Part shown: piece by piece, positions 13,607 to 62,870 of the stretch
Position numbering within the stretch: the stretch's first letter is position 1
How the letters are laid out: every line of letters starts with the position of its first letter
Assembly (NCBI GenBank): GCA_032718475.1
Contig: JAUCBJ010000603.1
Span: 1-64,000 of the forward strand
Direction: 5' to 3'
Source: Nemertoderma westbladi
Lineage: Eukaryota > Animalia > Xenacoelomorpha
Length of the DNA: 64,000 nucleotides
Position numbers and translations under genes: made by a program
Notes under the pieces: generated by a model
Seen by the model: the letters and a program-made list of their open reading frames with translations, nothing else
Told to the model about the DNA's origin: nothing
The model's database searches: none

Positions 13607-13950
13607 GTACAATCTGAGCAGGCTTACACGCCTTCTGCTCAATATTGGCCTACAAATAAATAAAACTGACAGAAATAAGTAAGCTCCAAAAGAAACAAGG
13701 GGTGTACAGTCCCTAATCTCTTAAACAGCCTACCGGTATACAATATCACAATCGAATAATACTGCTGTACCTGTACTGCTGTAGGTACTGGTCCGGGTGG
13801 TTAGGTAGTCAGGCCTACTAGGTACCGGTTAACCGGTACTTCAGCTTTATTGCCTACTGCAATACAGAAGCAATATCTGTTATTGTTCTTACCAGAACAA
13901 TAGTAAACTGTATTTATTGCCTACACTGCAATCAGAATCATAACTGTTAT

Positions 13951-27222: not shown

Positions 27223-27334
27223 TCTAAGTTTTATATTAAAAAGTTTTATTTATTTTCATAAAAGTTTAATTTATTTAAAATTTTGTAAAATCATTTAGCT
27301 AAAATTCAATATTATCAATTGACATTGCTATATA

Positions 27335-33494: not shown

Positions 33495-33511
33495 TGGGGG
33501 CTCGTCCGGGA
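33495..33511 (+). other. Primer-binding site for tRNA-Pro
   Basis: TGGGGGCTCGTCCGGGA, 17 of the 18 nt of the classical MLV tRNA-Pro PBS. Confidence 0.93.
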
Positions 33512-35683: not shown

Positions 35684-38600
35684 AGAGTGTACTTTGCGAG
35701 GTTAAACACGCCCAGCAACGCTGGTAACGGTAAGTGTACAAACCCTTTTTGTTGTTTTGTTTCTGCGATAGATAAGACTACGATCCCAGCAGGGACACAG
35801 GTGAGACTGGCAGGGAAATTGTATGATAATGGATTATTAGCAGAGTCGGTAATGATAGAGCCGTTAGTAAAATCAAGGGGTTCATATCTAACTGCGCGAA
35901 GTGTAGTTTCTAACCCATTGGATGGATCAGGTAAGGTCCCAGTGCAGTTATTAAATCCGAATAACTACCCCGTTACAATATATCGCAATCAGAAAATTGC
36001 ATTATATTGTACAGTAGATAATGATAGCTTCAATAAAGAAGTTAAACAAGACTCAGTAGAGCGCGACATACAAAGGGAGTATTTAGCTAAGGAATTACCG
36101 TTAGATCATTTGGAGCCTCAGCAGAGGACCCAGTTAATAGATATTGCTACTCAACATGCTGCGGCGTTTTCCTTTGGAGATTGCGATATAGGTAAGACTG
36201 ACCTATTAGAACATAGACTCCCACTTAAACCAGAGGCTAAGCCCTTTTACACGAGACCACGTACAGTACCTATGGGGCTTAGGAAAGAGATTGACAAACA
36301 GGTAGGCAATATGTTAGCCGCAGGTGATATTCAACCTAGCAACAGTGAGTGGGGGGCACCAATAATATTAAGTAAAAAAAAAGATGGTAAGTGGCGGTTT
36401 TGCGTTGATCTTCGCCGCCTTAACGCTGCGGCTGTGCCACAATTTTGGCCTTTGCCGCGCATAGACGAAATGTTGTCGGAAATTGGCACAGCACGGCCCA
36501 AATATTTTACGACACTCGATTTTAAATCGATGTTTTGGCAGGTACCCTTAGCCGCTGAAGATACACATAAAACCGCTTTCGTAACACATAGTGGCCATTA
36601 CGAATTTGTTAGAATGCCCTTTGGCCTCCAGTCCAGCCCTTCTGGCTGCCAGAATCTTATGCAATTAGCATTGCATGGTATCGAGTACGTTCTCGTTTAC
36701 CTCGATGACGTCATACTGTATACCCGGGAATGGGACACCCACGTAAGTACTATTATCATTCTATTACGTAGAATTATCGATCTCGGCTTGAAGCTCAAAC
36801 TAAGTAAGTGCATGTTCGGGGCGACATCTGTAAAATTCCTAGGCCATGTGATAGATAGCTCAGGGCAGCATATGGACAAGGATAAGGTTCAAGCCATGGT
36901 TGATTTTCCGCGACCGGCCAATGCAAAGCAACTTTATAGCTTCCTAGGATTATGTGGCTACTATAGGAAATTTATTAAGGATTATGGTAAGATTGTAGCT
37001 CCCTTGAACGTGTTGCTAAGGAAAAACCAAGAGTTCGTATGGACAAGCGATTGTGAGCAGGCCTTTACATTCCTTAAGAAATGCCTAATTAATAACCCTA
37101 TTCTAGAACACCCTGATTTCGACCAGCCATTTTACCTAGAGACTGACGCTAGCGGTATAGCTTTAGGAGCTGTTTTATATCAGGATGCGGGCGTAATCGC
37201 TTACTCATCGAGGTCGCTAAGCAACGCTGAGAGAAAGTGGTCCATTACGGAGCTAGAGGCTTTAGCCGTGGTCTGGGCAATGCAGAAACACAGGTTTTAC
37301 CTCATTGGCCACGCATTTACGTTAGTTTCGGATCATAAACCACTCAGTTGTTTACAGACCAAACTCGAACTTCCAGGACGTTTGCAGCGATGGGCCGTTA
37401 AACTGTCTGAATTTAATTTCAATTTTGTTTACAGGCCAGGCCGACTTAACCGCGCTGATTGTCTTTCTAGAATACCATTACAGGTAACCCCTGGCAACCA
37501 ACGAGATGAAACCGTTTCTAATGAACCGGTTGCCATGGATACGTTACTTCCCCCTATGCATAATGACCCAGTCTCGTCAGATAATTATTGCTTCATAGGA
37601 CTAGCCAATTTAGACCTACATAATGATAGCGATAGACCAAACGCTGTTGAGGTGGACCTAGACAATGGCGTGCAGCCGCCAAAACCTAATCCATGTGACA
37701 TTCTAAGTTCCCCAGACAGACCCAACCACGATAGTGACGTCACATACATTATCAATAATGACAATAATAATAATTGGACACTTCCAGGCGGCCAACAGTA
37801 CTGCACATTAACTGCCTTGCGTAAGTTACAATCAGAAGACAATAACTTACAGCCTATGATTGATACATTACTGGACACAGCTGTTACAATAGCCGATGCC
37901 GATGTGCGCAAATCGCTACACGAGTATCGTTACATGCTCAAGTTTAGAGCACAATATGTTATGGTTGACAATATACTCTGCCATTTATCAACAAGTAACG
38001 GGAAATCGAAGGTACAGATTGTAGTTCCTAAGTTACTAAGGCAACAAATTATATCCATGTGTCACGATGAAAAGTCTCACATGGGTATTGATAAAACGGT
38101 AGGTGCTATCCATATGAAGTATTATTGGGTAGGTATAAAGGATAATGTTAAGCAGCACATTCGTGAATGTGACCCATGCCAGCGTAGGAAGGGCGTCCCT
38201 CAGACCCAACCACTGTCACCTCTCCCAGTCGTTGAACGTGTCTTGCAACACCTTTCAATTGATATCGTTAAAGGTTTCCAGACGTCATCTAAAGGTAACA
38301 AGGTTATCCTTACAGTAGTTGATCATCTTACTCGTTACGCTTCCCTCCTCCCGTTACCAAATGAAGAAGCCGCTACCGTTGCCAGGGCTTTAGTGGATGG
38401 TATTTTTCTTATATACGGCGCCCCCGAGAGTTTATTAAGCGATAGGGGTAGTAATTTCACGTCTAATTTATTCAAGGAATTAACTGCAATGTTTGGTATT
38501 GTTTCCGTATTTATGTCGGTATACCACCCAGCTTGCAATGGTCTTACAGAACGCATTAACCAGTTAGCTGTAAACATGTTATCGTTGACAGCTACCAACC

Positions 38601-39196
38601 CGCATAATTGGGACGAGTTTATTCCCGCTGTTGCGTTTAATTATAATACTTCGATTCAGAGTACACTTAAGGAAACTCCTTTCTCTTTAATGTATGGGCG
38701 ACAGGCGACAACTCAAGTAGACACGCAGATAGCCCGGCCATACAGCTTGCTAGCAGATGAAGCAACATTCGCAAACGAATTAAGGTTTCGTTTGGAGCGG
38801 GCCCATGGGATAGCCAGGGAAGCTCTTAGGCTTACACAGGTGAAACAGAAACAATACCACGATGGTAAGCTGGGGAAGCGCCAACGCAGTAACATTCGAA
38901 CCTACACTAAGGGGCAGTCTGTATTATACTATGATAGGACGACCAAAGGTAAGAATACGAAGCTGAGCTTCAGGTTTAGGGGTCCTTATGCTATTGTTGA
39001 TCAGGTTGGTAAATCAAGTTATGCCATTAAACTGTTGGGAAAATCGGGAAAACCAAATCCACGTTCTCGACTTATTACTGTAAATGTGAAGGACTTAAAA
39101 CCATACTATAGGGAAGAAAGTAACTCCACGGGAGATGATACAGGTAGGGGGAATGACAGTGGGGACGTCTACGACGGTGACGATAGCGACTGTTGA
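35684..39196 (+). CDS. pol: Gypsy Pol (RT, RNase H, integrase), in frame with gag-pro after one TAA
   Basis: WRFCVDLRRLN, RMPFGL, YLDD, ETDAS, HHCC zinc motif, SIDIV / SDRG / TER catalytic triad, RGPY. Confidence 0.95.
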   Translation, partial: RVYFARLNTPSNAGNGKCTNPFCCFVSAIDKTTIPAGTQVRLAGKLYDNGLLAESVMIEPLVKSRGSYLTARSVVSNPLDGSGKVPVQLLNPNNYPVTIYRNQKIALYCTVDNDSFNKEVKQDSVERDIQREYLAKELPLDHLEPQQRTQLIDIATQHAAAFSFGDCDIGKTDLLEHRLPLKPEAKPFYTRPRTVPMGLRKEIDKQVGNMLAAGDIQPSNSEWGAPIILSKKKDGKWRFCVDLRRLNAAAVPQFWPLPRIDEMLSEIGTARPKYFTTLDFKSMFWQVPLAAEDTHKTAFVTHSGHYEFVRMPFGLQSSPSGCQNLMQLALHGIEYVLVYLDDVILYTREWDTHVSTIIILLRRIIDLGLKLKLSKCMFGATSVKFLGHVIDSSGQHMDKDKVQAMVDFPRPANAKQLYSFLGLCGYYRKFIKDYGKIVAPLNVLLRKNQEFVWTSDCEQAFTFLKKCLINNPILEHPDFDQPFYLETDASGIALGAVLYQDAGVIAYSSRSLSNAERKWSITELEALAVVWAMQKHRFYLIGHAFTLVSDHKPLSCLQTKLELPGRLQRWAVKLSEFNFNFVYRPGRLNRADCLSRIPLQVTPGNQRDETVSNEPVAMDTLLPPMHNDPVSSDNYCFIGLANLDLHNDSDRPNAVEVDLDNGVQPPKPNPCDILSSPDRPNHDSDVTYIINNDNNNNWTLPGGQQYCTLTALRKLQSEDNNLQPMIDTLLDTAVTIADADVRKSLHEYRYMLKFRAQYVMVDNILCHLSTSNGKSKVQIVVPKLLRQQIISMCHDEKSHMGIDKTVGAIHMKYYWVGIKDNVKQHIRECDPCQRRKGVPQTQPLSPLPVVERVLQHLSIDIVKGFQTSSKGNKVILTVVDHLTRYASLLPLPNEEAATVARALVDGIFLIYGAPESLLSDRGSNFTSNLFKELTAMFGIVSVFMSVYHPACNGLTERINQLAVNMLSLTATNPHNWDEFIPAVAFNYNTSIQSTLKETPFSLMYGRQATTQVDTQIARPYSLLADEATFANELRFRLERAHGIAREALRLTQVKQKQYHDGKLGKRQRSNIRTYTKGQSVLYYDRTTKGKNTKLSFRFRGPYAIVDQVGKSSYAIKLLGKSGKPNPRSRLITVNVKDLKPYYREESNSTGDDTGRGNDSGDVYDGDDSDC

Positions 39197-40209
39197 CCAT
39201 TGACGCAAATTATGAGACGTAGTCGATGTGACTTGACTGTTTGCTGGTTACCATGGCTACATAGATAAATTGGATTTATTAACAATGAATAACTTTTGTT
39301 TGGAAAAAAAAAATTGTTATCCTGAAATATTTAGATATTGTGATTTTTTTAAATGGATGGATACATGTTTATGATAGATACTGTATGGATACATTTTCAT
39401 GTGATAGATACATGTATTAATTATTTACTTATAGCCTTTATTTATTGTGGCAGTGACACATTTTATGGATTGTACTATGGTCGGTTACTTACGGTGCGAT
39501 TTATAGATTGCAATTATGCTTGATATAGTGTTATTTGGTTACTCATTGTTGTACTCTCGTTGTACGTGTTATTCTTTAGTCATACTGGCGTACGATACAT
39601 GCAGTACGAAATTTCGATTTAGATATTATTGGCCTTAGGCTAGTTGAATGTATTGTTGGTATCGTGCTTCATATACAGTATCTTTATACTGCCGTTGAGG
39701 TAGACTTTACTTGTCGATGTAGTCATTAGACTTGGGGTTTGTAGTTTGTGCGTTCTAGAAACTCGTGGGCGAGTTTTTTTTAGGAAGGGGGATGTGATAT
39801 TGTATTAAGGGATGGTGTATTATTGGACTGATTAGTATGTATTGTATAGGTTAGGTAGGTATGATATAGTAGTATCTTGTTAGCACCTAGGGTGTGAACA
39901 GCAGGTTGTACGGTAGCTGTCAGGGATATAGTCCTGGGGGCAGGGCGCAGTCAGTAGTTATCATTCAGTTTAGTTATTGAGATGACTTACCGGTGTAGGG
40001 TTGTCAGTCATGTTTTGTAGGTAGTTCGTTATTAGTTTCATTGTCTGATTGTATCACATCATTATTTGTTATTCATGTATCTCAATACACAATATACTGA
40101 TATACTGCAGCTGGTTTCCTAGTTTTACTTCAGTCTTCTCCAGCTCACCCCTCGAGCGGGATAGTGCGTGGCCGTGGATCCGGGACCGGGCGCTGATAGC
40201 GCTTCCACA

Positions 40210-43200: not shown

Positions 43201-43677
43201 CCTCATTGGAAAACTCTATGATTTCATTACTAGGGAATTATTATTATTACCATTACTAAAATTTAATTAACCTAGTAATCTAGTATGTAACCTAGTAATA
43301 AACCTAGTAATTATCATTACTAGGGCTACTAATTTCGCATACAAGTATCTAGCTATGTTAGTCCTATTACCACACCTGTTGTTTAGTGTATCCCAAACTT
43401 GTCTTAGTCCGTCAGTATGTCCGATGAACTTTAATGCCATCAATTTGCGGGGACCTTCCAAGCACTCGATGAGGAATCGTAACTTTTCTCTGTTTGATAA
43501 TACATAGTTTTGTATGTTGTCCTTATAAATATTCATTAAAAGGCAGCCACTTCAACTCATCTCAGTTAAACTTGATGACCTCTCCCATCGTTCTAGCCAT
43601 CTGACTCGTAAAACTCTCCTGAGCCATCGTATTATTCAATATCAAATTATCCGAATATACATTTCTAGGATTATTGT
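40210..43677 (-). pseudogene. gag-pol: B gag-pro-RT, frameshifted
   Basis: Fragments KVRVVFDGSA, SDIEGMFLQV, IYMDDNL, GGFRLTKFTSN; Gag and PR fragments closely similar to A. Confidence 0.92.
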
Positions 43678-44951
43678 TGTGATGGGATCAGTGGATCCCG
43701 ACCGGTATGTTGTTTATGTACGCGTCCCCGCCGTGTGAATGAAAAAGGGTTCGTTGTTGTTCCGATAATGTTGATGAATATAAAATATAGTATATAATGA
43801 GCAAACAGATAGCACAGTTGAAGTACAGAATGATCGGTAATATTGAATGTGATGGTGATGGCGATTACGGTAATAGAATGTTACCGTACTGCCCTAACTG
43901 ACTGAGCAACTGAGTAAACTGAATGTGTGATGAAACACCGACCGGTAATATACTACACTACATTGGCCTGTTACTTAGCTGATGCCTTCCTGTCCCCCCA
44001 TTGGTTGATAACCCAATTCTCGGCTCCCACCTCTGTGGGAGTGTTTCCCCCTGGCTACTGTTACTTTCTCTCTCCCGGAGGCTTAACCTCTGACCTCCAT
44101 TGTATACGGCCCTTTGGGGGTTCGTTGCCCCCGTTTATTGGGGGTGGTACGAGGTTGATTGGCAATCAACCTCGTGCTTCCCAATATTGCTTAAAGGCAC
44201 CGTCTCCCAACTTTATGGGGTGGTTAGCGGAATTGAATCCGCTACCACTCCCCCTCATGCTATCTTCCCGGTGAGAAGATAGCATCAACCTCTAGTGCGC
44301 TTCAATTCCGCTGGAACCTGATCTACTATCAGGTGTGGGGTGGAGTTATTTTCTTTTCAGAGCCGGCTTTCCAGGCCGCTCCCTATGGGTGTGATGTCGC
44401 TACCCCCTCTTGGTGCAATTTCGTCTACCTTGCACCAAGACATCTGACGTCCCGTGTTGGGCTGATTGTGGGTTTCTGTCACACAATTTTTGTTTCCCCA
44501 ACACTCCCTCCACTCTAACTCCACACTAACTAACTCTAACTTCTCCCCCACTCTAGCTCTCGGACCTTCTTCTCCCTCACTCTACCTCTCACTCCTCCCC
44601 CCCACACACTTGAATTGCACTCGCACTCTCTCCGCGCGTTCTATACTCGACCTTCACCCCCAACGCTCTCGCTCCTGACGGGCCTCACCCTCCCTTCCTG
44701 TGCCGTCGCACTCAAGAAGTGTGAAGTCGTCTAGTGTCCTGTTCCGCCATAGTCAATTGGTTCCCAGTCCCAGTAGATAATTGGAAAAGGTTATATGACT
44801 ATAGTACTTACTTTGATTATATTTGCTTATTTGACTATACTAATGATTATTACATACGTACATACTAATTGCACTTTTAATCAATTAAATTTTTGCACTT
44901 AGGAGTTCGTACTTCTCACGTGGTGCCTTCCAGGCATCCCACATCCAAGTT

Positions 44952-47560
44952 CTAGTTCGTCCCACCTGACTTTGGGAACCATCTCAACTCCTTCCCCCTG
45001 TCGTCCTCCTCCCTCGGTCGTTTCCTGGCCGCTGCCGCTCCCTTGGCCTTATCCCTATTTAAGTTTCTGACCCTCGCTGTTACCTCTCTACTTATTCCCG
45101 TCATCGACTCCTTGGGTGCTGGTGTTATCAGCTCCCGGTATCGCTTCGTGGGTTGCCCCATCGAATGGCCCTGTTGTCTCCCCCTAGTGGCATCCCATAG
45201 GATCACCTTCATCGCCCGCGGCACATGCACTGCCAAGAAATCTCTGAACTCTCCTCGGTTCTGTGGTGTCCACCTGTCCAAATACCTCTGCGTATTTATC
45301 ACCCCGGCATACGACGCCGCCGTTGACACATCCTGCTAGGTAAACGGAAGTCTCCGTCTAATAATCTCCAGGTGGGCCTCCTGGTTGACACCAAAGAAGC
45401 CCCACCGGAACTCCTGGGCCCCCACACGCCGCCGCGTCATGGCACCGACATCGGCCCATTCCTCGAAGATCCTAAACCTCTCCCCGTCGTCCATCCAGTC
45501 GCACTGGCATCCACAGTGCCCCCGGAAGTCGCACTTAGAACACCGGTTGTGCAACCGTGGACACGCCCCCATTCTGTGGCTTGACTCGCGGCGGCAGTAG
45601 AGACAACTAGTCCCTTTCTGGAATCGGTACAAACAGCTCCTTTCCTGGTGAGTTTGCCTCCCGCAGTAATCGCAGCCGAGCACCAATGTCTCCCGCCCCA
45701 CGTCGTCTTTCGTCCCAAGCAATCTCCTCGGTCCGTGGAGTCACTGGTAAGCGAACTTTTGGACGTTAGCATCCCTGTCCACGTCTATCTCCTCGCCCCT
45801 CCCGGGCATCGTCTCTCCGAATACTACTCGTGGTGCCGTTCCTGGTTGCTCGCCCAACCTGATGGTGCTCCCCGCAAAATCCATCGCCGGCTCCTCATGC
45901 ACCCAGCCCGCTTGCCGGATCTATCCCAGAAGGCTCTCGCCCCACTGGCCATCACCACCCTCCCGCCACCCCAGTCCGTGTCCGAGTGGCCGATCCTCCC
46001 GATGGGCGGCATCTCTCCGAACTTGTCGTCATCCTCGTCCTCCTCTGGGAGTGGTTCCAATCCTGGTATCCCGGTGGATCCACTGTGTCCCTTCCCACCT
46101 TGGCTCTCACCCGTGATCTTCCATCCTTCCAGCTCCCCCGGTCTCCTCTGCGCGAAATCGCCCTCTGCGCCCGCTGGTATGGGTGTCGCCTACAATCCCG
46201 ACTGTTTCGGTGACCCTACCGTCCACCCCAACTCTCGCCCTAGAGACTCGCCCGAACTCCCTGATGATGTTCAACGAAGTTCATCTAAGGCCGCCTGTTC
46301 CTCGAACCCGTAGATCTCTGCTCTGGCCGCCTCCTCCCTTTCTTCTGCCTCTCTCCTTTCTTGTCTAGCGATTTCTTCCAATCGCTTCGCTTCTCGTCTA
46401 TCCACCTCTAGCTGCTCCCACCTCTGATATGGCGTATCCACATCCCTGTCTACTAGATGTCGGCAGTTATAATACACCGACTCGCCCTTCAGCCCCGGGT
46501 GGTCTACCAGACCCTCGAAAGCCACTCTGAAGGCTCTTCTGTAGTTCAGGGGTGATCCCGATAGCAAGAATGCTGTTGGTTCTCTCTCGATAACCACGGT
46601 GATGAATAGGTTTAGCAAACCTATCATTATCCAGTCCTCCTGCAGGATATATCGCTTCTTATATACCTTTATTGCTCCTCTCCGGAATTGATACACCTCT
46701 TGCTTCCCCGGCCTTGCTTCCCACTTCAGCAAGTTTGCCAACTCCGCTCCGTACTCCTCCCTGAATTTACCCCAGTCCATTGGTTTGTGGCATATGAGCC
46801 CCATTAGCTGGCCCATTGCCACCGCTCCACAATGGCCGGCATTCTCCACTAGTCCCAACCCGTCTGGCGCTGTCATAGCCATGTAGACCATTTGCGTATC
46901 CAGGAGGTTGGAGGTCTCCGGAGCGATGATCCTCTCCGCATTGTCGCGGATCGCCGATCCCACCTTTATCGTCGACTTCTCCCTTACTAGACTCTGCACC
47001 GCTTTTGGCAGCCGGTTCAATTTTGGCCCGTTCTTCTTCCCATACGTTCCTAGGTCGAATAGGAATATATCCCCATTTGGCGCGGCCAAATGCAGGAGTA
47101 TGGTTCTGGCCGACCCCGCCGACCCTCTTCTCGAACCTTCCTCGTCTTCCACGGTCCCTTCATCGTCTAGGACCATGTACCCTCCCCTGCTGACGGACTC
47201 TACGAACCTCTTCCAATCCTTTCTCGGTGGCTCCTTTGCATACTTCGGTATCCCGAACTTCGCCTCGTCTCCTTTCACCATGTAGTGGAAATGCTCGAAG
47301 ATTGCATTGTCTAGCAACGGTGTCCCGTAGGTCCCGAGAGGTCGCTGTTTGTGCACCTCCCTGAAATGGTCCTGCAGCGCTCGCGCTTTGTGACCCCTCT
47401 CTAACCGCTCGTAGTATCCCCTCGTCTTCTCTTCCGGATGCCTCTCGGTGAAGTCCACCAGTATCTCCTTTCCTCCTAACTCCGCCTTTCTCTTTCTGAC
47501 CAGTCTCTCCGCCATCTCGAACTCTCCCGATCGCTCACCTATAAGGTGGGGCCTTGCCAA
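44952..47560 (-). pseudogene. Extra 3' ORF of C (~870 codons, several stops and a frameshift): DEDDy 3'-5' exonuclease-like domain, acidic linker, three CCHC knuckles and a basic tail
   Basis: 46271-47560: VLDDEG...LLHLAAPNGDIFLFDL...LPKAVQSLVREKSTIKVGSAIRDN...LLDTQ...YILQED. 45336-45722: three knuckles. 44952-45329 is in the same frame as the knuckles after one stop. Confidence 0.75.
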
Positions 47561-48024
47561 GGCACAATATAAATGAGTGATGCAGTTAGGATGGTCTGTG
47601 CAGTTCGATAATGGCCTATCTCACACTATATGTTAGGTTATCGCCTAATTTTCCTACCCTAATTTCCTAAAGTGCCAAATTCTACCAAATTTCGTAATTC
47701 TGTCCGTTACTTAAAATATGTTCTGGAATATTTTTCCCTACTGTTACCATAATTTGTCTAATTTTCTAATTTTATTTATTTTAATATTTAATTTAATCCT
47801 ACTATTGTGCTATCAGTATCTGCCAATGGATTATTCTATTTATAATCCACATTCTGGCCTACTCTGTGGGATGGTGCAGTACAACAGTATGTGTTGCGTG
47901 GCCTACACGATTTATCCAGCTGTACCCACATGCCCCCCTCTCGCTACTCATTACTAACTCTACTAACTTTCCAGCTAATTTCTGCTGACTCTTACTATAT
48001 ACTATATTATACATATCCTCCTAC

Positions 48025-48730
48025 CACTAACTCTTACTGGTAACGGTACTATACGTACCCTCCTACTAACTTCTCTACTAACTCCTACTACCGGTACTAC
48101 GTACCCTCTTACTAACTAGCTCTACAACTAACTCTTACTAACCGGTACTACGTACCCTCTTTCTAACTAGCTCTACAACTAACTCTTACTAACCGGTACT
48201 ACGTACCCTCTTACTAACTAACTAACTCCAACTAACTCTTACTAACTGGTACTACGTACCCTCTTACTAACTTCTAACTCCACTAACTCTTACTAACCGG
48301 TACTACATACCCTCTTACTAACTAACTAACTCCAACTAACGGTACTACGTACCCTCTTACTAACTTCTAACTCCACTAACTCTTACTAACCGGTACTACT
48401 TACCCTCTTACTAACTAACTAACTCCAACTAACGGTACTACGTACCCTCCTACTAACTAACTAACTCCAACTAACGGCACTATGTACCCTCTTACTAACT
48501 TCTAACTCCACTAACTCTTACTAACCGGTACTACGTACCCTCTTACTAACTAACTAACTCCAACTAACGGTACTACGTACCCACTTACTAACTTCTAATT
48601 CTTACTGACTTCTATCTGCCTACTTACTTACTGTGTACTTACTATGTACTACTTTCCTTTCTCTTTCTCTCTTTCTGACTAACTCCAACTAACGGTACTA
48701 CGTACCCTCTTACTAACTTCTAACTCCTAT
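48025..48730. repeat. Minisatellite (ACTAAC-CGGTACTACGTACCCTCTT, ~40-48 bp) between pol and the extra ORF of C
   Basis: Visible tandem array. Confidence 0.92.
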
Positions 48731-48840: not shown

Positions 48841-51800
48841 TCACCCTCTGATCACCAGATCACCCTCTTTCAACTCCCTATTTGTATTTCTCCACTTGCT
48901 CCTCCTATGAAGCGTGGGTAGATATTCCTCGACCCACCTCCTCCAGTACTCCGCGCTTATCGCCTTAGCGACTTTCCAACTCTGTCGGGAGTCTATATTG
49001 TCTGGGTCTACACCCCGCATGTCGATTGTCGCCGGCCTCTCCATTAGAAAGTGACTGGGCGTCAGCACATCTAATGATTCTGGGTCATCATTTTCTGGAT
49101 ATAGCGGTCTGCTATTAATGATACCCTCGCACTTTGCTAGTACCGTCCTTAGTACGTCCTCTGTTACCATGTGGGTGTTCATCAACTTCGTCATCAGACG
49201 TTTGGAACTGCCCACGAGTCTCTCGACGCATCCTAGAGTATGCGGAGCATACGGCGTCCTCCTGTCCCACTTCACCTGTCGTCTTCTCATGGCTGCCCTG
49301 ACTTCCTCCCCTTCCAGGATGTCCAAGGCCTCTGCCATCTTGTTCTCCGCCCCCACAAAGTTGGTTCCGTTATCCGAGTATAATACTGCGATTGTCCCAC
49401 CTTTGCGGTTTCTGAACCTCTCTAGGGCATTGATGAATGCCGATGCGGTTGCGTCTTGGGCGTGTTCTATCCCTACCGCCCGCGTGTTATTACATACGAA
49501 GATAATGCCGTAGCGCTTCTCCGTGTGCCGCATCACCTTAATCTTTATCGGCCCGAACATATCTACACCGCAGTGTGTGAATGGCGGGTCATGCTGTCTT
49601 ACTCTATTGGCCGGTAGTGGCGCCATCTCCTGTATGGCTGGCTCCTTCTTCATCCTCCGGCAGGTCTGGCACTGCCCCACTACCGCCTTTACCTTCTTCC
49701 TTAACTGTTTGACCCAAAAGGTCCTCCGTATCTCCGTGAGGGTTCGGTTGGTGCCCCCATGCAGTATCGACTTGTGGGAGTCCCAGATGATCTGGTGCAC
49801 TATCGGCGATCTATTGGGGATGATGATTGGTTTTGGTGGAATGATGATGCTGTTATTGTTGAGCACCCTGGAGTTCTTTATTAAAATCCCATCGTCATTG
49901 AGTTGTTGCAACAGCGCGATCAGCTCGCTGTCCCGTCGGAGATGCTGTTGTTTACTGATGCGTTCCACCTCATCGCCGTAGTTTTTTCTTTGTTCGTAGT
50001 GGATGACGGCCTTGGCCGCCCCCTCCAGATCGACGTTTGGTTTCTTCTTGATGTCTTGGCCAACCCCCTTTAGGAAGTTCCCGAAGACTCTCCAGTACGC
50101 CACTAACTTCTTGGTCTTGTACCAACTTGAGCTGTAGCTGAGGAGTTTGTCCGTCGGGTTATCGCATAGTTCTTCCAGTTTTGGTTGCACGTCCCTTATC
50201 TCCCTCACCATCTGGCTATATATCTCCTCGCCTTCTGAGTCTCCTCCCTCCTCCTCTAGTGCTACTTCCTCTGAGCCCGGGTCCTCCTTCTTCATCGGTG
50301 GCCAGGCTCTCCTGTCGTTCAGGAATTGTGGCCCGTGCTGCCACAATACTTCCTTCTTCAAGAAAGTGTGGCGTGCCACGCCCCTCGATAACAAGTCCGC
50401 TGGGTTCTCGTCCGTTGGGCAGTAGTGCCACCTTTCCAACTCCGTCATCGCTCTTATTTCGTCCACCCTATTTGCGGCGAATATAGGGTATCTCGTCCTT
50501 TCATTGTGTAGCCAACCAAGCACTACCATGGAGTCCGTCCAGTAGTGTGTTTCCACTATGTTGGGAATGGTATCCATCAGATAGGCTGTGGCTCTTACTC
50601 CTAATCTCGCAGCTGTCAACTCGAGTTTCGGGACTGATGCTGAATCCGGTGGCGTTGACTTCGCTTTGCTGAATGCGAGTCTGGGCTTATGAGCCCCCTC
50701 TTGTTGTACTAGGTAGAGTGCCGCTCCGTATGCCTCCAATGATGCATCGGAGAACATGTGTAGGTCCAGATTCGTCATGTCCCCATCCGGGAAATACACG
50801 CGTGGCATGCTGTATATCCCCATCTGTTCTAAACTCTCTGTCCACTTGCACCACTGCTTGCTGATCTCTTCCGGTACTTCTGTATCCCACTCGTCCTTTA
50901 GTTTGTATACTTTCTTAAGTATCTGTTTCCCCGTGACTAATAATGGGGATGCTAGGCCTAGGGGATCATATATCCTCGCTATGTATGACACATAGCCCCT
51001 CTTTGTGTGGATGTCTGCGCCCTCCTGGCTCAATTGGTACTTCAATTCGTCTGTCTCTCGGTTCCACACGATCCCTAGTGCCTTCTGTTGGGACTCTATC
51101 CTCTTGTTCGCCATGTCCTGTCCCTTGGCTGTCGTGGGATTATCCATGGTCGCTTCTGGCCTCCTGTCCTCTATGGCTTTGATAAATTCTTCCGAACTGG
51201 ATTGGAACTTGGTCAGGTTGAACCCGGATCCTTTTAGGATGTCGCGAACCTCGCGCCCCGTATCCAGTAGTTCTTTAACCGTATTTCCAGACTCCATTCC
51301 GTCATCTACATAGAAGCCGCGTCGAATCATATCGACGGCTTTAGCGCTGTATCTCTCCTCTTTACCCTCTACTGTGTTTCTTACAGCCACAGTCGTCGTG
51401 AATGAGGACGACTTGGCACCCATATTCTGCACCACCATCTTGTACATCGGTATTGTCAACGGTTCCTCGTCGCCGTTGTACCATAGGAAGCGCTGACTGT
51501 CGCTATCCTCTTCCGTTACACGGACTTGGTTGAACATGCCTTCGATGTCGCAAGTGAAGGCGTGCTTCCCGTTTCTGAATCTGAGTAAGACCTCGATCCC
51601 TGAGTAATAGATGTTGGGACCCTCCAACAGATAATCGTTTAGGCATTTGCCGTTGGTTTTAGCCGATGCGTCAACTACCATCCGCAGTTTACCTTTCTTC
51701 GGATCTAGAGCCACGTGAAGTGGCAGGTAATAGGTCCTGTCCGTGTTCGGTTCATCGACCGGTAACTCCACGGCCCATCCTTTCTCAACATACTTCCTAA

Positions 51801-53946
51801 TTGTCTTATGAATGTACTCATTCTTTTCGAGGCTCCGCTTTAGCGTTTGCTTCAACTTACGAAGCCTCGTGAGTACCATTCCTTTATTGTCGGGTAGCGG
51901 TAGCTTCGGTAGTTTCCATACCATCCCTATGGTATACCGCCCCTCATCGCATGTCATCGATTCCTTTACGCTTTGTAAAGCCTGCTTATCCTCCACCGAG
52001 GTTCCGACCTCGGTCTCTTTCAATCCCTCAAAATCTTGTCTAAGCAGTCTCCTGAGCTGCTCCTCCACTCCTTCGTCTTCCATCTCCCGCATAGTTCCTG
52101 CGAACATGCACCCTGATGTCTCCGACATCCTAAACGGTATTTTGCTTCTAATTGGGCCGCTCAGCGTCCACCCAAATGGTGTCAAGATCGCCACCGGGTC
52201 ACACTGCCTGTCTTCGCCGAAGACCGTTTGCATTCTCTCGTGGGCCGTCGGGCAGTCCATTCCTACTATAATGGATACCTTCCTAACGTCCACCTCTGGG
52301 ATTGAGAAGTCGATACAGTCCAGGAATTTATATTGTTCGACCTCGATGTTGGTTGGTCGCCTGGCGTTGATATTTATCGACTCTATCACCTGGATGGGGT
52401 TGATCGTCGTCCCATAATCGCATCCCGGTGCTATCGCTGCTATCCCGCACCATCCAGTCCTCATCTCCAGGACCTCATCTTTGCTGGAGATGGTTGTCAC
52501 TGCCATCCTACTTGGCCTCGTCCTCAATCCTATTTCTTCGGCCACCCAATTCTCGACCAACGTGAAGGCTGCTCCACTGTCGACCAGCATCAGCGTGGTT
52601 ACTGATCGATCGCCTTCCCCAATCACCCGCACTGGTACTACCCCGAGTAGTGCCATTCCTCTCTTCTTTGCTCCTACGGTGCTTGTTGCCATCGTCTGTC
52701 CTCTGGCTTGACCAAACTTAATTGGCGTCTCCTTGCATTGGTTGGCTCGATGTCCACCCGTCACACATCGAGAACAAACTTCGTTCCTCCTCGCATATTC
52801 TGTCTGATCTTCTCTGGGTAGTGCTTGCCAATATCTGCAATTCATCGTCTGATGAAGTGCGTTCGTGTGCAATTGGCACTTATTGTTTGGGTTGTAGCCA
52901 TCCTTGTATAGTGCGCTATGTATCGCACTTGCATTCGTACCTAGGACCCTACTGTTCTTATTACTTGGGTTCGGCCTACCGGGCGTGTTAGGGTTATGTT
53001 TATTTGTGTTGTTATTTTTCCCTTGTCCGCTCCATGGTGCAGCCTTACCCCCGGCTATATGTGGACTAGCAGTCCGCTGCGTCGCTGCGTATGGCAGCGA
53101 TTGTCTGAGCTTTGGCAATGCATTCGCCGTGTTGTGTTCTGGTTTCGGCCTATGGTATTCGGTCTTTGGTCCCTTTCCCAGGCTATCCTCGCTATAGATT
53201 GGGTCTGTTATGAGTTCGGCTTCGTAGTTAAGGAAGCTCGACATTTCTTCTAGACCCGGTTCCGCACCCTTCCTATCTCGAGTGGAGAAAGCGATTTTTC
53301 TCCACTTATTGCGCAGCCAAATCGGTAGTGCCTGCGCTATCGTGGTGATGTTATTAGATGCGTTGAGTTCGTATGGCGCATCCAGCATCTTTAACACGAT
53401 TAGCGCTTTCTCGACTTTATTCGCAAATGTCTTTATGCTAATGGGATTATCCTGTAGGCCACCCGATGTTATACCTCTCAGGGTCTGCCGGATGATCTTG
53501 GCCGGGTGCCCGTACTCCCTGTCTAGTGCCCGCCATGCTGTCGTGAAGCCACCCTCGATGCCCTGGTGCTGCCTCACGATGTCGTATGCTGGGCCTCCTG
53601 TATACACCTGTAAATATTTTAGGCACTCCGCCTGCGTCAAGTTCTTTGTTAATATTTCATTGCTATACATGTGCCGAAACTGCAGGTATTCTTCCGGCCT
53701 ACTTCCATCGAATTTAAATGGTTCTATGGGTGGTAACTCGATCATGGTTTTTAATGCATCGATCAATGTAGCCATTCCCATCGCTTGTGCTTCCAATGGG
53801 TTCGATGGATGTTGTATAGATTCTCCTGTTGGGTGCGGTCCGCCCATCCTATCTGCTGTCTTTCTTTGCGTCGGATATATCATAGGGGGTAGCGGCCCCC
53901 TCCATATTTCGGTGTCGCATGATCTGCTCTCGTCCAGGGGGTTCAA
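48841..53946 (-). CDS. gag-pol: BEL/Pao Gag-PR-RT-RNase H-integrase polyprotein (C-terminal tip frameshifted, continuing to ~48745)
   Basis: KFDGSRPEEY, LVDSGA, CDIEGMFNQV, YVDD, LHMFSDAS, WTDS, NPADLLSRG, H-H-C-C motif, GVDMFGP / SDNG / VER, RSKW. Confidence 0.95.
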   Translation of the reverse strand: MNPLDESRSCDTEIWRGPLPPMIYPTQRKTADRMGGPHPTGESIQHPSNPLEAQAMGMATLIDALKTMIELPPIEPFKFDGSRPEEYLQFRHMYSNEILTKNLTQAECLKYLQVYTGGPAYDIVRQHQGIEGGFTTAWRALDREYGHPAKIIRQTLRGITSGGLQDNPISIKTFANKVEKALIVLKMLDAPYELNASNNITTIAQALPIWLRNKWRKIAFSTRDRKGAEPGLEEMSSFLNYEAELITDPIYSEDSLGKGPKTEYHRPKPEHNTANALPKLRQSLPYAATQRTASPHIAGGKAAPWSGQGKNNNTNKHNPNTPGRPNPSNKNSRVLGTNASAIHSALYKDGYNPNNKCQLHTNALHQTMNCRYWQALPREDQTEYARRNEVCSRCVTGGHRANQCKETPIKFGQARGQTMATSTVGAKKRGMALLGVVPVRVIGEGDRSVTTLMLVDSGAAFTLVENWVAEEIGLRTRPSRMAVTTISSKDEVLEMRTGWCGIAAIAPGCDYGTTINPIQVIESININARRPTNIEVEQYKFLDCIDFSIPEVDVRKVSIIVGMDCPTAHERMQTVFGEDRQCDPVAILTPFGWTLSGPIRSKIPFRMSETSGCMFAGTMREMEDEGVEEQLRRLLRQDFEGLKETEVGTSVEDKQALQSVKESMTCDEGRYTIGMVWKLPKLPLPDNKGMVLTRLRKLKQTLKRSLEKNEYIHKTIRKYVEKGWAVELPVDEPNTDRTYYLPLHVALDPKKGKLRMVVDASAKTNGKCLNDYLLEGPNIYYSGIEVLLRFRNGKHAFTCDIEGMFNQVRVTEEDSDSQRFLWYNGDEEPLTIPMYKMVVQNMGAKSSSFTTTVAVRNTVEGKEERYSAKAVDMIRRGFYVDDGMESGNTVKELLDTGREVRDILKGSGFNLTKFQSSSEEFIKAIEDRRPEATMDNPTTAKGQDMANKRIESQQKALGIVWNRETDELKYQLSQEGADIHTKRGYVSYIARIYDPLGLASPLLVTGKQILKKVYKLKDEWDTEVPEEISKQWCKWTESLEQMGIYSMPRVYFPDGDMTNLDLHMFSDASLEAYGAALYLVQQEGAHKPRLAFSKAKSTPPDSASVPKLELTAARLGVRATAYLMDTIPNIVETHYWTDSMVVLGWLHNERTRYPIFAANRVDEIRAMTELERWHYCPTDENPADLLSRGVARHTFLKKEVLWQHGPQFLNDRRAWPPMKKEDPGSEEVALEEEGGDSEGEEIYSQMVREIRDVQPKLEELCDNPTDKLLSYSSSWYKTKKLVAYWRVFGNFLKGVGQDIKKKPNVDLEGAAKAVIHYEQRKNYGDEVERISKQQHLRRDSELIALLQQLNDDGILIKNSRVLNNNSIIIPPKPIIIPNRSPIVHQIIWDSHKSILHGGTNRTLTEIRRTFWVKQLRKKVKAVVGQCQTCRRMKKEPAIQEMAPLPANRVRQHDPPFTHCGVDMFGPIKIKVMRHTEKRYGIIFVCNNTRAVGIEHAQDATASAFINALERFRNRKGGTIAVLYSDNGTNFVGAENKMAEALDILEGEEVRAAMRRRQVKWDRRTPYAPHTLGCVERLVGSSKRLMTKLMNTHMVTEDVLRTVLAKCEGIINSRPLYPENDDPESLDVLTPSHFLMERPATIDMRGVDPDNIDSRQSWKVAKAISAEYWRRWVEEYLPTLHRRSKWRNTNRELKEGDLVIRG

Positions 53947-56877
53947 TGTTCTTGTTCCTATTGGAGTATATTGTTGATATTGCGATGGGGGAATGTCACC
54001 CTGTCCCCCCCCCCACCGGTGTATTTGATACTGGGGTTGATGTTAATATATTGGGGGCCATGCACCTATCCGCAATAACTCTTCCCTCCCCTGGATATAT
54101 GTTATGCCCTTGCATGCTGTAGTCATACTGCTGTGCTGGTACCGGTATAGGCCTATCCACTTCTGGCCTACCTACCGGTATATACTCCGCGACTTCCGGG
54201 TTTAATCCCGCCATCCGTGCTACCCTATCACCTACGTTATCTCTTCCAGCATGGCCTATAGTATGTGCAGTAAGGCCTACAGTATGTCCTGCAATCTGTA
54301 TGTGTCACTCGGGATCGAAGTTTAACCTTCTCGAATAATCCTCCCCGGAGCTACCGTATTCTCGATCAGCAGGTATATCCCGTCGGGAAGTTTCTCTTCG
54401 ATCCCCTCTACTGCTCTCGTCCTCGTACCGGTACACCCTGTACCCCTCTCTTGGCGTGTAGTACGCCTCGTCAGGTCGCATCTCCCCGGGACGACGGCAA
54501 TCTCCCAGAGTTCGACCCCACTGACTCTCCGTCTCCATCTCTACTACCGACAGCTCGCTATCCGTCCTCGCTCTCCTGTCGTTCGCGACGACACTTCTTC
54601 TACTCTCTTCCCTTCTTCTCTCTGCAGTACAGTATCCCCGCTTGTGAGATCTCTCGTCGACCTCCCGGTTAAACTCCACTGTTCTTCTTCCCTCTTCTGA
54701 TTGGGCTCGATGTCTCGTCGCTCGCCCTCTCGCGACGTCAACCTGTCTCTCTCTGCTCGATCGCACGCCGCTGGGGATACTCGTAATCCCCCTACTATTC
54801 TCCATCGCCGGGTGCTGCGGTTCACCTAATTCGCCCCGCGCATTATCCGCCGACGCCTGTGGGGTACTCCCTGCCCCCCCCCCCTCTCGCCGCTAATCCC
54901 TCATTGTGGGGCTCCTGCAGCCCCCCCCCCCCCCCACTCGCCACCTATCACTTCTCTATCTCTTACTTCACTTCTACGCCCCTCTCTAGTCGACGCACTA
55001 ACTCTACCGCGACTGGGTCTATTCACCCCCGCCTCTCCCTCTGTCACTGTGTTGCCTGGTAGGCTCCCGTCGGGTTGACTCAACCCCGCTACTCCCTGCG
55101 CACTAACTACGTGGCCTACCAGGCCCCTGTCGGGCTCTCTCACCCCTGCCACCTCCTGCCTACTGATTACGTGGCCTACCAGGCTCTCATTGGGGTTTCT
55201 CACCCCCGTTACTCCCTGCCTACTGACTACGTGGCCTACCAGGCTCTCATTGGGGTTTCTCACCCCCGTTACTCCCTGCCTACTGACTACGTGGCCTACC
55301 AGGCTCTCATTTGCCGGGCCACCTGCGTCCGCCACGTTTATATTAATCTTCTATATCTTCTTTATCTAATATTCTTATCTTCTAAATCAATTAAATTATT
55401 TTGCACACCTAAATTAGAAACGAGATTATTTTGGTCGTTTGAATTAAGATTGTTATTTGAATTATTTTGCGTAATTATATTATTTGAATTATTTTGTATA
55501 TTCGGATTTAAATTATTATTTAAATTATTCGAATTATTTTGTAAATTTATATTAGGGTCGTTCGGATTTAAATTACTACCATCGGGCAAAATATTATTTC
55601 CTGCAATGAAAGTTTGGTTAGGATTATCCACTACGGTACTATTAATATTAACGTCCTCTGCTGTATTATTATTATTACCCCCCCCCCCCCCCCCCCGCCC
55701 GTACGGTCACACCAGTCTTGGGTCTGTCATCCGGTCCCTGTAAGTGGGATATTGATAAATGTTTCCATAACTTCTGGCTCCTCGTAAACACTACCCGAGC
55801 CAGCCTCGCTCTCTGACAATCCCATCTGCGCCAGTTCCAGTCGGCGCTTCTGTTTGGCCTGATATTGCATAAGCCCCCTTAGCCGGGCATGCATATCATC
55901 CCGCACACGTTTTCCCGCTCTCTCCCTCTCCCTATCCTCTCGTAAACTCTGATAGGCTAACTCTGCCTCTCTCGCAATCCTCTCAAGCCGTCTTGCCTCA
56001 CGCTCTTTTCGCTCACCCTCTTCTCTCGCCTCCCTCGCCGCCTTGCGCTCTTTATGTTCACTCTGCTCTCTTGCCTCACTCGCCTCCCTCGCCGCCTCAC
56101 GCTCTTTACGTTCACTCTGCTCTCTCGCCTCACTCGCCTCCCTCGCCGCCTCACGCTCCTCTCGCTCCTTCCTTTCCCTCGTTTCTATCTCCTCACACTC
56201 CCTAAAATTTCTCGCGACCCTCTCGGCTCGGCCTTCTCTTTGTTCTCTCTAGCCAGTTCTCTCTCCCTTTCCAATAACGCAGTTCCCTCCTCCAACTCCC
56301 TCTCCAACTCCTTTTGGTCTAACGCCACTATATCGAGCTGGCACGCCAGATCGATTTCTAACACCCTTCTTACTTTTGCAGAGGATGTAGCAGACTTGTC
56401 GGTTGCGACGGACTCCCGTCGCCTCCCCGTCCTACTAACTTTCCCCCTCTTTCTGGGGTTCTCAGCGACCGACGAGACCGAATCCTCGGGGTTAACCTCA
56501 GATTCTCGCTCGTGCGGTCCCGCCCAACCCACTAACTTAATTCCCCTGGCATCCACTAAGTATGGCCCTATGTACACTACACCAGGCTCCATACCCCTAG
56601 ACTGCCACAACTCGAACAGTTCGGTGGCGACCCCTCTCGCTCTTTCACCCGCCAACTCTCCTTGCCCAAAGCGAACTAGATAGTTAAAATGTTTGTTCGA
56701 CTCACCTAGTCGCTGATCTAGTTTCACCTGGTCTAGTTTTGCTCCCTCTTTAGCTTCCTTCATCTGCTTCCTCGTCGCGTTGTAGGCCCGTCGGAGCCGG
56801 TCGCTAACTCCGACGTCCTCGTCGCCGACATCCCCTCTTTCTCTCCATGTTCGGCGTCGTACCGGCGGCCCCACCAT
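53947..56877 (-). pseudogene. Long low-complexity/coiled-coil N-terminal Gag extension of C, broken by frameshifts
   Basis: Consecutive ORF pieces (56185-56877, 55362-55631, 54901-55335, 54305-54805, 53996-54214); several breaks lie near C homopolymers; 60-bp and 48-bp coding repeats. Confidence 0.65.
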
Positions 56878-57303
56878 CGCCGTTCCGGTAGGCCGTCCGT
56901 CGCCCTCGGCCTGTGGCTGGCCGGCGACATTGGTACATCGTACGCCCTCGTGCGTCGACTCTTCCTCCCTCTCTGGTAGATGGCCGCCCTCCGCCTGGGC
57001 TATCGGGTCATTCGTGGTCGACGATCCCGGCGTCGTGGGTCGATACCGTCGCGTCGCGGCCTCGCAGATCGTTTAGTCCGTATCGTCCGGGGTCCGTGGC
57101 GGTGTCGTTTCTCCTTCTTGGCTCATCTTTTATCGGTGGCTGGCAGTCACAGTTTTGATAGTAGGGTGGATGGGTAATTCTATTACTGTGACGGGATCAG
57201 TGGATCCCAACCGGTATGTGGTTTATGTACGCGTCCCCGCCGTGTGAATGAAAAAGGGTTTGTTGTTGTTCCGATAATGTTGATGAATATAAAATATAGT
57301 ATA

Positions 57304-57568
57304 CTAGCAGGCAATACCCGAGGCATGTTACCCAGTATTTCCCGCTACCAGCATATGCCTACTGGAGTACTGATACCGGTATAGGCCTACTGACGTACCG
57401 GTACCCAGTACTGGTACCGAACGTGAATTATACTTTTCGAAGAGTGGCCTATAACGACCGCTGGTTAAAGTTATACACACATGCCAAGTCCCAGCGCAAT
57501 CCTTCTGCCCGTTTTGGAGGAGTTCGAACACAGAGAGAGAGAGAGAATTTGATTTTTATAGGTATAGA
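57304..57568 (-). mobile_element. Non-autonomous Helitron-like element (265 bp) in the 5' LTR of C
   Basis: Minus strand runs 5'-TC...CTAG-3', inserted between A and T with no TSD. Removing it exactly restores TATAGTATATAATGAGC, as seen in the other LTR. Confidence 0.88.
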
Positions 57569-58026
57569 TAATGAGCAAACAGATAGCACAGTTGAAGTAC
57601 AGAATGATCGGTAATATTGAATGTGATGGTGATGGCGGTTATGGTAATAGAATGTTACCGTACTGCCCTAACTGACTGAGCAACTGAGTAAACTGAATGT
57701 GTGATGAAACACCGACCGGTAATATACTACACTACATTGGCCTGTTACTTAGCTGATGCCTTCCTGTCCCCCCATTGGTTGATAACCCAATTCTCGGCTC
57801 CCACCTCTGTGGGAGTGTTTCCCCCTGGTTACTGTTACTTTCTCTCTCCCGGAGGCTTAACCTCTGACCTCCATTGTATACGGCCGTTTGGGGGTTCGTT
57901 GCCCCCGTTTATTGGGGGTGGTACGAGGTTGATTGGCAATCAACCTCGTGCTTCCCAATATTGCTCAAAGGCGCCGTCTCCCAACTTTATGGGGTGGTTA
58001 GCGGAATTGAATCCGCTAACAATTGT

Positions 58027-58596
58027 TTTTTTATATTTACTACTTTATCTTCCAAACCCTCAACTGGTCCACGGACCTGGATATATTTTGGGCCAACTGC
58101 CTGAGCAGCTTGCCCATCTCCCACCGCCCTTGCTCCATCCACTCAACCGCTGGTGTGGGAGATGCCAACGGAGTGGCTGGACGGCCCATCGGGCGATGGG
58201 GGACGACCCTTGCCCGAATGATTTATATTCATCGGGCTTACCGCCAACCTGTGATTCAGGGATTTGGCTACTGGTGAAGGGAGTATTTGTACTTCCTAAA
58301 GGAAATCTAGAATCGGGTTCGAACAGTAAGGGAGCCTCCACTAATGGGGTAGACCACCTAGTTATCTCAGGCTCGTCTAGAATAGTGGGAAGCCTATCAG
58401 ATTCGAATACTTGGGTGATTAACTCGGCAGATTTTAAATCTGTGCTCGCCAGTTCTCTTCTCACCGGAGGGGGCAAGTTGGGCAACTTGCGTCCTATGGG
58501 AGCTTGTCTACATCCATTTGAGGTGGATTTGTAACTCCTACATTCTGATTCTGTCGTCGTACCTTCATCTGAGGTGGTAATATTTGACTGAGAAGG
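58027..58596 (-). pseudogene. gag: B gag N-terminal fragment
   Basis: LPPPVRRELASTDL...DRLPTILDEPEI matches A Gag LPPTVRKQLASTDL...DRLPTIVDEPEI. Confidence 0.85.
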
Positions 58597-61502: not shown

Positions 61503-62507
61503 CTAACACGCCCTCAACTGTTTGACATAATCGTAAGAAACTCTAGCACCACTGGACGTTTTTTCTATAGTCTGGAACTGGTTAGCTTTGACATTAAATG
61601 GCCCATACTTCCCGACAGCCTGTTGGAGGATAACTTTTGTATGGGGTGGAACCGCAGCGCAAACTTCGATTGTTGTTTCCAGAGACCAGGTCTTAGATGA
61701 GGTTGCTGACCACTCCATACCAATTGAGGAAGTCACACTGGCAGAGAAAACTTTCTTAAACCCACCTTCGACAGTGACTTCGGTACCAATAGATATTGTG
61801 TATGAGTGTTCATTAGTAACACTCGTTCCTACAGTCTCCGAGTACTTGCATGACCCTTCACCTGAGCTTTGCGTGTTGTCGAGGCTGCAAACTGTTACCC
61901 AGAAATCGATGGCACCCCAGTCTTCCTTTGTACCAATCTTCCAACCATGGAACTCAGTGTAGCTGGGATCGTAATGATCAAAGGACGCTACATTCACTTT
62001 CCCTTTTTCGGCCGACGGATGAGCCGTGATGTATTTAAAATGATTTTTCTCCGATTGAATCCATAGTGTGTCTTCATTAACATTGATGTACATTTTCCAT
62101 TTCTGATTATCATTTGTTATAGAAAGAGCGTCTCCCTTCACACAATTGTTGCCATAGACGCATACTATCTCAGGATGGCGTTCCAAATATTTTCCTCGAG
62201 CCGTTTTTATTGATACACGATTATAGCCCTCTGGGAGGAATGTTACTTCGTATCTCTCATATCCCGTCACACAGTTACTACATTTATTATACAGGAACAA
62301 ATCGTCATTTGAGGCGGATACGAGTTTTTCATGGTGGGAGATTAAAATGATTTTATCATCACCAACGTTCAAGGATCCTGAGGCGTCGGCATTCCCAATA
62401 TGGAACCGCCACAGTTGTTTTTGGCTGGTTACTGGAACTGACCCTTGTGGAGCTCCGAATCCAGGCGCAAATAAGCCGATTAGTATGAAAGCAAAAATAT
62501 TGTGCAT
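61503..62507 (-). CDS. Secreted protein with a fascin/ricin-like beta-trefoil and an aerolysin/ETX-MTX2-like beta-pore-forming domain (putative)
   Basis: Intact 334-aa ORF in a good ATG context (ATAAAATG); hydrophobic signal peptide; RVSIKTARGKYL and NDNQKW trefoil-type motifs; Ser/Thr-rich alternating beta-hairpin followed by VPPHTKVILQQ. Confidence 0.72.
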   Translation of the reverse strand: MHNIFAFILIGLFAPGFGAPQGSVPVTSQKQLWRFHIGNADASGSLNVGDDKIILISHHEKLVSASNDDLFLYNKCSNCVTGYERYEVTFLPEGYNRVSIKTARGKYLERHPEIVCVYGNNCVKGDALSITNDNQKWKMYINVNEDTLWIQSEKNHFKYITAHPSAEKGKVNVASFDHYDPSYTEFHGWKIGTKEDWGAIDFWVTVCSLDNTQSSGEGSCKYSETVGTSVTNEHSYTISIGTEVTVEGGFKKVFSASVTSSIGMEWSATSSKTWSLETTIEVCAAVPPHTKVILQQAVGKYGPFNVKANQFQTIEKTSSGARVSYDYVKQLRAC

Positions 62508-62870
62508 TTTATAATATGTGTCGCTGATATGGTTCGTATCTTACGATATGGGTAGTATCTGTGTAAGTCGCTGATATGGTTACTATCCTAAAGTATTTAG
62601 TACTGTAGTAGTTATTGTATGTGATATGGATGGCTTTACAGAGCTGTGGGATGCCACTACTGTCATGGACACAGTGGCATCCCAAGCGAGTAGATAATGG
62701 CGATTCGAAGGTGCTAGGTTCACACCTTCCACACATTTACTGTTGCCCAGTGGTTCCATGGCCGAATGCCTAGCAATTACAGTATATCGTTGACCATAGC
62801 GTGTATGTGATGATGTTTTGCATTATGCTTACAGGGTAGACATCGAAGATTAAGTAAGTCTCAAGATATT

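Follow-up and report, generated by a model that had tools for sequence, protein, structure and literature searches.

A known self-priming LTR retrotransposon is Tf1, in which the RNA's first 11 bases pair with the primer binding site (PBS) and cleavage by RNase H falls between bases 11 and 12 (PMC7175516); the available text of a further report adds that flanking duplexes make a pretzel of this structure (bioRxiv 2022.12.06.519325). Outside Tf1/sushi, a self-complementary PBS has been predicted from sequence for the TAR lineage, Houba and Osr-1 among plant Ty1/copia elements (PMC6317226, as far as its accessible text goes). The fungal GalEa elements are also LTR elements without a tRNA PBS, and in the part of the source available to us their Conserved Hairpin Site lies wholly past the LTR and had no LTR complement (PMC5445492). 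For the BEL/Pao superfamily, the element Achilles of the olive fly is described as having an 18-nt PBS for tRNA-Tyr (PMC4580426). We found no report of self-priming or of a splice-built primer in BEL/Pao in the main text of the openly accessible full-text literature. The available text of PMC3601003, PMC13524379 and PMC8220671 contained nothing on BEL/Pao self-priming, and word searches of such text returned no PBS, no tRNA and four mentions of PCR primers in the Sinbad paper (PMC554778), and no mention of primer, PBS, tRNA or intron in a BEL/Pao survey (PMC3118150).

Here we describe a BEL/Pao retrotransposon of Nemertoderma westbladi, element C, whose PBS is complementary to its own LTR. C is like Tf1/Tf2 and the Tf1/sushi group in having no tRNA PBS, in that about 11 bases past the 5' LTR pair with RNA derived from its own LTR, and in encoding an RNase H (compared with the available text of PMC7175516 and bioRxiv 2022.12.06.519325). 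Tf1/sushi elements are, however, Ty3/gypsy chromoviruses whereas C carries the BEL/Pao domains Peptidase_A17, DUF1759 and DUF5641; the Tf1 primer is the first 11 nt whereas the RNA of C probably does not begin with its paired segment in this way; and, unlike the Tf1 segment, that of most relatives of C is split by a predicted intron. C resembles the plant copia elements in that the self-complementarity is a prediction from sequence outside Tf1/sushi, but those elements belong to another superfamily and kingdom, and the text of PMC6317226 available to us mentions no splice-built primer. In contrast to the GalEa site, the PBS of C has its partner inside the LTR, and C, although a BEL/Pao element like Achilles, has no TGG-type PBS at its LTR end.

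Results

The window, meaning the whole stretch of 64,000 nucleotides of contig JAUCBJ010000603.1 analysed here, is repeat-rich, with LTR elements nested within one another. C is a young LTR retrotransposon on the minus strand, inserted within the older BEL element D (Table 1). Its TG...CA LTRs, 5-bp target duplication and polypurine tract are those of BEL/Pao elements, as is its domain order of DUF1759, protease, reverse transcriptase (RT), Peptidase_A17 (Pao-type RNase H), integrase and DUF5641 (Belpaoviridae), and on this domain set we assign C to BEL/Pao. The RT motif is YVDD, and C also has four acidic motifs that we take to be those of RNase H. Pfam gave no chromodomain match, and with its BEL/Pao domains the pol of C is not that of the chromoviral Tf1/sushi group. 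Over RT-RNase H, C is 34-39% identical to the best 120 of 1509 homologues; BEL/Pao domains are present in the best ones, and the named relatives among these 120 come from fish, cnidarians and a snail (mollusc). The gag-like frames upstream of the long pol frame are broken, as is the region past the accessory ORF, and G+T-rich imperfect tandem repeats lie between pol and this ORF (47951-48729, minus strand). The 449-aa accessory ORF gave no match in Pfam, PDB or protein searches, its homologue was found in 0/76 of the metagenome BEL loci described below, and its single-sequence structure model had a pLDDT of 33; by eye its acidic motifs are DEDD-like, and DEDDy exonuclease ORFs are known from other, rotifer, LTR retrotransposons (PMC5408684, in the text accessible to us). 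An intron was considered as the cause of the 265-bp difference in length between the two LTRs of C and rejected, as GT-AG ends are absent.

Table 1. Coordinates of features of elements C and A in the window
Feature	Position	Strand	Remarks
C target-site duplication, upstream copy	58022..58026	-	ACAAT
C 5' LTR	57187..58021	-	835 bp, TGT...ACA, ends ..GTCACA at 57187; from LTR-LTR alignment
TATA-like TATATTA	57720..57726	-	motif only
First of four TCAGT initiator-like motifs in C	57692..57696	-	candidate start; others at 57687, 57679, 57675
TAGGG in C LTR	57666..57670	-	predicted extra pairing with CCCTA 57166-57162; five more pairs
C self-complementary leader segment	57644..57659	-	predicted primer 3' end (..AC) at 57644
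265 bp unique to C 5' LTR	57304..57568	-	TATAC microhomology on flanks; GT-AG ends absent
C PBS position	57173..57186	-	GTAATAGAATTACC; directly after LTR, no TGG
C 5' region, broken gag-like frames	54043..57172	-	e.g. 57072-56185, 54892-54305; no Pfam match
C gag-pol frame	48841..54042	-	open, 1733 aa; DUF1759, protease, RT, Peptidase_A17/RNase H, integrase, DUF5641 cut short (Pfam)
C accessory ORF	46271..47620	-	449 aa; no homologue found; DEDD 3'-5' exonuclease resemblance by eye only
C Cys/His-rich frame	45336..45740	-	homologous to A accessory ORF, 26% over 96 aa, E 8e-9
C polypurine tract	44248..44262	-	just before 3' LTR
C 3' LTR	43678..44247	-	570 bp, without 265 bp of 5' LTR; 11 substitutions relative to 5' LTR
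C 3' LTR hairpin	43866..43888	-	8 bp with 7-nt loop; covers segment
C target-site duplication, downstream copy	43673..43677	-	ACAAT
A PBS position	13940..13950	-	10/11 pairs with 14699-14689 in A 5' LTR (15142-13951)
Duplicate of A LTR end and PBS	13873..13883	-	11/11 pairs with 14699-14689 (2/1424 by chance)

The PBS position of C reads GTAATAGAATTACC directly after the 5' LTR end and has no TGG, as the initial annotation had claimed, and its pairing with ATTCTATTAC (57653-57644) in the LTR is indeed complete at 10/10 and grows to 14 bp with a 2-nt bulge. Shuffling, proposed there as a possible refutation, left the match standing: an anchored match of at least 10 was found in a fraction of 0.002 of 5000 shuffled LTRs. 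Among pseudo-PBS positions, an anchored match of at least 10 arose at 63/58,990 and the bulged 14 bp at 2/28,536, and a control, the gypsy element B with its TGG PBS, had a self-complement of at most 4 bp. With the five added pairs of the TAGGG motif the local duplex of C reaches -21.4 kcal/mol; for the best duplex that the whole LTR can form with a 20-nt PBS, however, the energy was equalled by 130/300 shuffles, and as such the signal lies in the perfect anchored pairing and not in energy. Folding of the leader from 57696 to 57100 gave a PBS pairing probability of 0.05-0.10, against approximately 0 from five other starts tried, and a search for a Tf1-like pretzel gave weak U5-leader pairing among suboptimal duplexes, with a global fold that does not favour the central duplex. 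The complementary segment of C is contiguous and contains no GT-AG junction. No tRNA genes were found in the window, an Rfam scan of 57000-58100 gave no match, and a pattern search of viral contigs gave 30 pattern matches of which 0 were confirmed.

The TATATTA and the TCAGT below it lie where they had been reported, and in both C and element A the segment ends at nt 53 counted from a TCAGT. This coincidence carries less weight than had been claimed: C has four TCAGT motifs, for which the offsets, and thus the predicted primer lengths, are 53, 44, 36 or 32 nt, while in A a TATA is missing from the position 30 nt above its TCAGT, and by our estimate a match at one given offset with four TCAGT nearby has a chance of about 1 in 20. 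The proposed capped primer of about 50 nt with a conserved 53-nt offset is therefore not established, as its start is a motif guess and TATA-based estimates for relatives span about 13 to 155 nt. A primer longer than that of Tf1 nevertheless seems plausible for C from its motifs. The reported 8-bp hairpin with a 7-nt loop over the segment was recovered in the 3' LTR only, at -12.5 kcal/mol compared with -8.3 in the 5' copy, which differs at 57642. The 8-bp form is probably the older state, the change in the 5' copy resembling CpG decay. Two-strand pairing with the PBS is stronger than the hairpin by about 8-13 kcal/mol, and the hairpin loop exposes 7/10 of the pairing bases.

Relatives of C were sought in metagenome contigs with a 43-protein alignment, a scan that confirmed 508/596 candidates and returned 76 loci. 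Together with C and A, 14 metagenome families made up a set of 16, of which none (0/16) shows a TGG at up to 7 nt from where the LTR ends. In seven of these families (L001, L019, L041, L043, L046, L060/61 and L068/70) the LTR end was fixed independently by a second copy that continues into other DNA, and all 7/7 lack a TGG and have an 11-15 bp complement to their own LTR, so that the refuting condition set by the initial annotation, ordinary tRNA PBSs or no pairing in related elements, does not hold. That annotation had overlooked, however, a predicted intron junction in the LTR, across which alone the complement forms in most relatives. In L001, L041, L046, L061 and L070 the match without splicing amounts to 6-9 bp, and only across a predicted GT-AG joint, which would remove an intron-like segment of 76-186 nt, does it reach the complete 11-15 bp. 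In these five and in L019, whose 11-bp complement is contiguous as in C, the observed length was reached by 0 of 1289-1619 pseudo-PBS positions. The complement of L043 is also contiguous, with 13 bp at an offset of 6, and is present in the 3' LTR copy only. L016 fails the strict filter (76/1583) and reaches 13 bp only under relaxed splice rules. In total, 12/14 metagenome families have a predicted GT-AG intron inside the complementary segment.

A blind scan for such junctions in the 56 loci whose upstream sequence measured at least 600 bases, 20 loci being excluded as too short, gave matches of at least 10 in 9/56 loci (two of which are one family) compared with 0/56 in antisense, and shuffles attained the observed value in 0-3 of 30. 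The other 47/56 loci had no blind junction match, and many of these seem to be without a full 5' LTR. A screen for tRNA-type PBSs, with a pattern that we take to be typical of them, gave 24 matches in 17/57 loci, none at a defined LTR end. A TATA-like motif lies within 260 nt of the donor in 6/12 junction-type loci, and with a start assumed 30 nt below such a motif the predicted primers are about 13 nt in L041 (Tf1-like), 28 in L016, 117-118 in L070 and L046, 127 in L052 and 155 in L020; as such, 53 nt is not a shared constant. An AATAAA or ATTAAA falls 20-99 nt past the acceptor in 8/12 relatives, and priming by the RNA's own 3' end was rejected on this ground. The GT of the PBS as a splice donor was likewise rejected, the sequence being GTT or GTC in several families. 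At L050:1-13277 a BEL element is repeated head to tail in a perfect tandem array, the period being 6138 bp.

The initial annotation had read the differing sequences of A and C as covariation between families, and this reading gains from the wider set: when the 16 PBS regions were compared with the 16 LTRs, at least 10 pairs were found in 15/16 own combinations and in 3/240 foreign ones, two of these three being between L020 and L070, which have a junction in common. These two families are identical at 20/22 junction-flanking bases compared with 101/164 intron bases. The LTR end is independent of the match in 9/16 families, of which 8/9 reach 10 pairs and A does not; the other 7/16 ends are partly circular, five coming from the blind scan, L050 having been chosen by eye and L016 lying where its contig ends. 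The limit on the offset and the splice rules were relaxed after L016, L043 and L050 had been seen, and L016 and L050 required the relaxed splice rules. The paired region begins with GT, so that the leader side ends in AC, in 12/16 families including C compared with a background of 35/464, and this was not a selection criterion. The pairing has an offset of 1-6 nt in 9/16 families. In a FastTree phylogeny of RT-RNase H with 79 rows, from which 10 loci of short coverage (L068 and L070 among them) were left out, the junction-type loci are scattered over the tree; C forms a long branch that shares no more than 39% identity with any row, and its place among the relatives is therefore unsure.

Discussion

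Since the PBS of C pairs with its own LTR leader and is not of the TGG type, it is likely that C starts reverse transcription on a fragment of its own RNA in the manner of Tf1, with a predicted cut just past the paired segment. Priming from its own leader, the core of the initial annotation, is thus supported, while the primer of about 50 nt at a conserved offset is not established. Transcription would start above 57659 in the 5' LTR, the leader would fold back on the PBS, probably with the help of Gag, and RNase H would, in the way known from Tf1, cut behind the AC at 57644. RT would then extend the fragment across the rest of the LTR and jump to the 3' LTR copy; strong-stop DNA would contain just the part of the LTR below the cut, and the primer sequence would be regained from that 3' copy, for which the hairpin covering the segment may act as a shield. 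Most relatives would assemble the primer by splicing out the LTR intron, while in C, A, L019 and L043 it would be ready-made, possibly after loss of the intron. The position of the AATAAA or ATTAAA past the acceptor would put the primer region in R, in which case the intron can survive only where splicing spares the 3' copy; a spliced 3' copy would give intron-less progeny, a likely origin of forms like C. Judged from its sequence, C is most likely a self-priming BEL/Pao element in the intron-less state.

Three other explanations of the match have to be weighed against self-priming. The stem between leader and PBS could be real but structural, with a role in packaging, dimerisation or translation control, while priming falls to some RNA of the host, for example an internal fragment of a tRNA. 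Half-tRNA priming does occur in Ty1/copia lineages, according to the available text of PMC6317226, and the pairing offsets in nine of the families would suit such a role, but a PBS sequence that varies between nearly all families and follows the LTR of its own family is incompatible with a fixed host RNA as primer, and the location of the pairing at the LTR end, with AC at the leader side in 12 of the families, argues against a purely structural stem; we regard this explanation as unlikely. It is also unlikely, in our judgement, that the primer is instead a separate short LTR transcript that anneals to the PBS in trans and has its tail trimmed as far as the duplex by a 3'-5' exonuclease, possibly the accessory ORF product of C, and not by RNase H in cis. 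The poorly predicted in-cis fold and the DEDD-like motifs of the ORF are consistent with trimming, as is the existence of DEDDy exonuclease ORFs in the other LTR retrotransposons (PMC5408684, accessible text). Against it, searches tied the ORF to no family, its structure model is of low confidence, and many loci show the pairing although none of the 76 has a homologue of the ORF.

The match in C could also be due to chance or be a copying relic, such as a local inverted duplication, with C priming differently from its distant relatives. C is indeed far from all relatives, it has no intron at the segment, and a single copy of its family was read; however, the chance of the match is 0.001 or lower, and it is anchored at the first base past the LTR with the GT start seen in 11 other families, so that we consider this unlikely as well. 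Self-priming from the LTR leader hence remains our preferred reading for C. Whether it extends further is, to us, an evenly balanced matter: in a wide animal branch of BEL/Pao, tRNA priming would have been replaced by a self-primer tens of bases long, cut after a conserved AC of the element's own capped leader, with splicing of an LTR intron building the primer in most families, so that only the 5' copy pairs with the PBS, and with C and A being intron-less forms in which a hairpin may mask the 3' copy instead. If true, this would be a third self-primed LTR superfamily, in animals, beside the Tf1/sushi (gypsy) and predicted plant copia elements of the accessible literature, and it would account for BEL elements without a recognisable PBS and offer a rule for locating the primers they use. 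Should the primer be built by splicing, initiation of reverse transcription would be gated by the spliceosome of the host, and an unspliced 3' LTR copy would have to pass on the intron.

Other elements in the window

Element A (2022-15142, minus strand) is a young BEL derivative with LTRs 99% identical and the target duplication ACGCC. Its gag-protease frame jumps to the RNase H end with no RT or integrase similarity, and A would therefore move in trans. The true PBS of A pairs weakly: it has 7 anchored bp, or 10/11 pairs with one mismatch (by chance 174/11,413), an 8-bp match occurs by chance at 110/1424, and the pairing probability in the leader fold is 0. A tandem duplication (13846-13956, minus strand) comprises the LTR end, the PBS and about 30 next bases of A, and its second copy pairs better with the LTR. 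A and C had been presented as independent cases; their PBS sequences do differ, but the Cys/His-rich accessory piece common to both (Table 1) indicates related lineages that are not fully independent. The LTR of A has a strong splice-donor motif, AG-GTAAG (14519, minus strand), some 170 nt below its complementary segment, and the two LTRs of D have retained this motif (58644 and the 32372 region). The insertion site of A is a 31-bp satellite, which is accompanied by 22-26 bp and 27-bp repeat arrays (1168-2028, 15146-29700), and at about 52-1170 there is a piece of A-like LTR whose end lies in satellite.

Element D (31840-59175, minus strand) is an older, A-related BEL element with the target duplication ATATG and LTRs about 90% identical, and is host to both C and the gypsy element B. 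D was considered as a third self-priming case and rejected, as its PBS is gone through a deletion that joins the 5' LTR to mid-gag. B (33078-40209, plus strand) has a 4-bp target duplication and a TGG PBS, presumably of the tRNA-Pro type. Beyond D, a single 345-aa open frame with a hydrophobic start (61503-62540, minus strand) has an ETX/MTX2 Pfam match in its C-terminal third at E 0.063, below the cut-off, and may encode a secreted host protein of the aerolysin-type pore-forming class.
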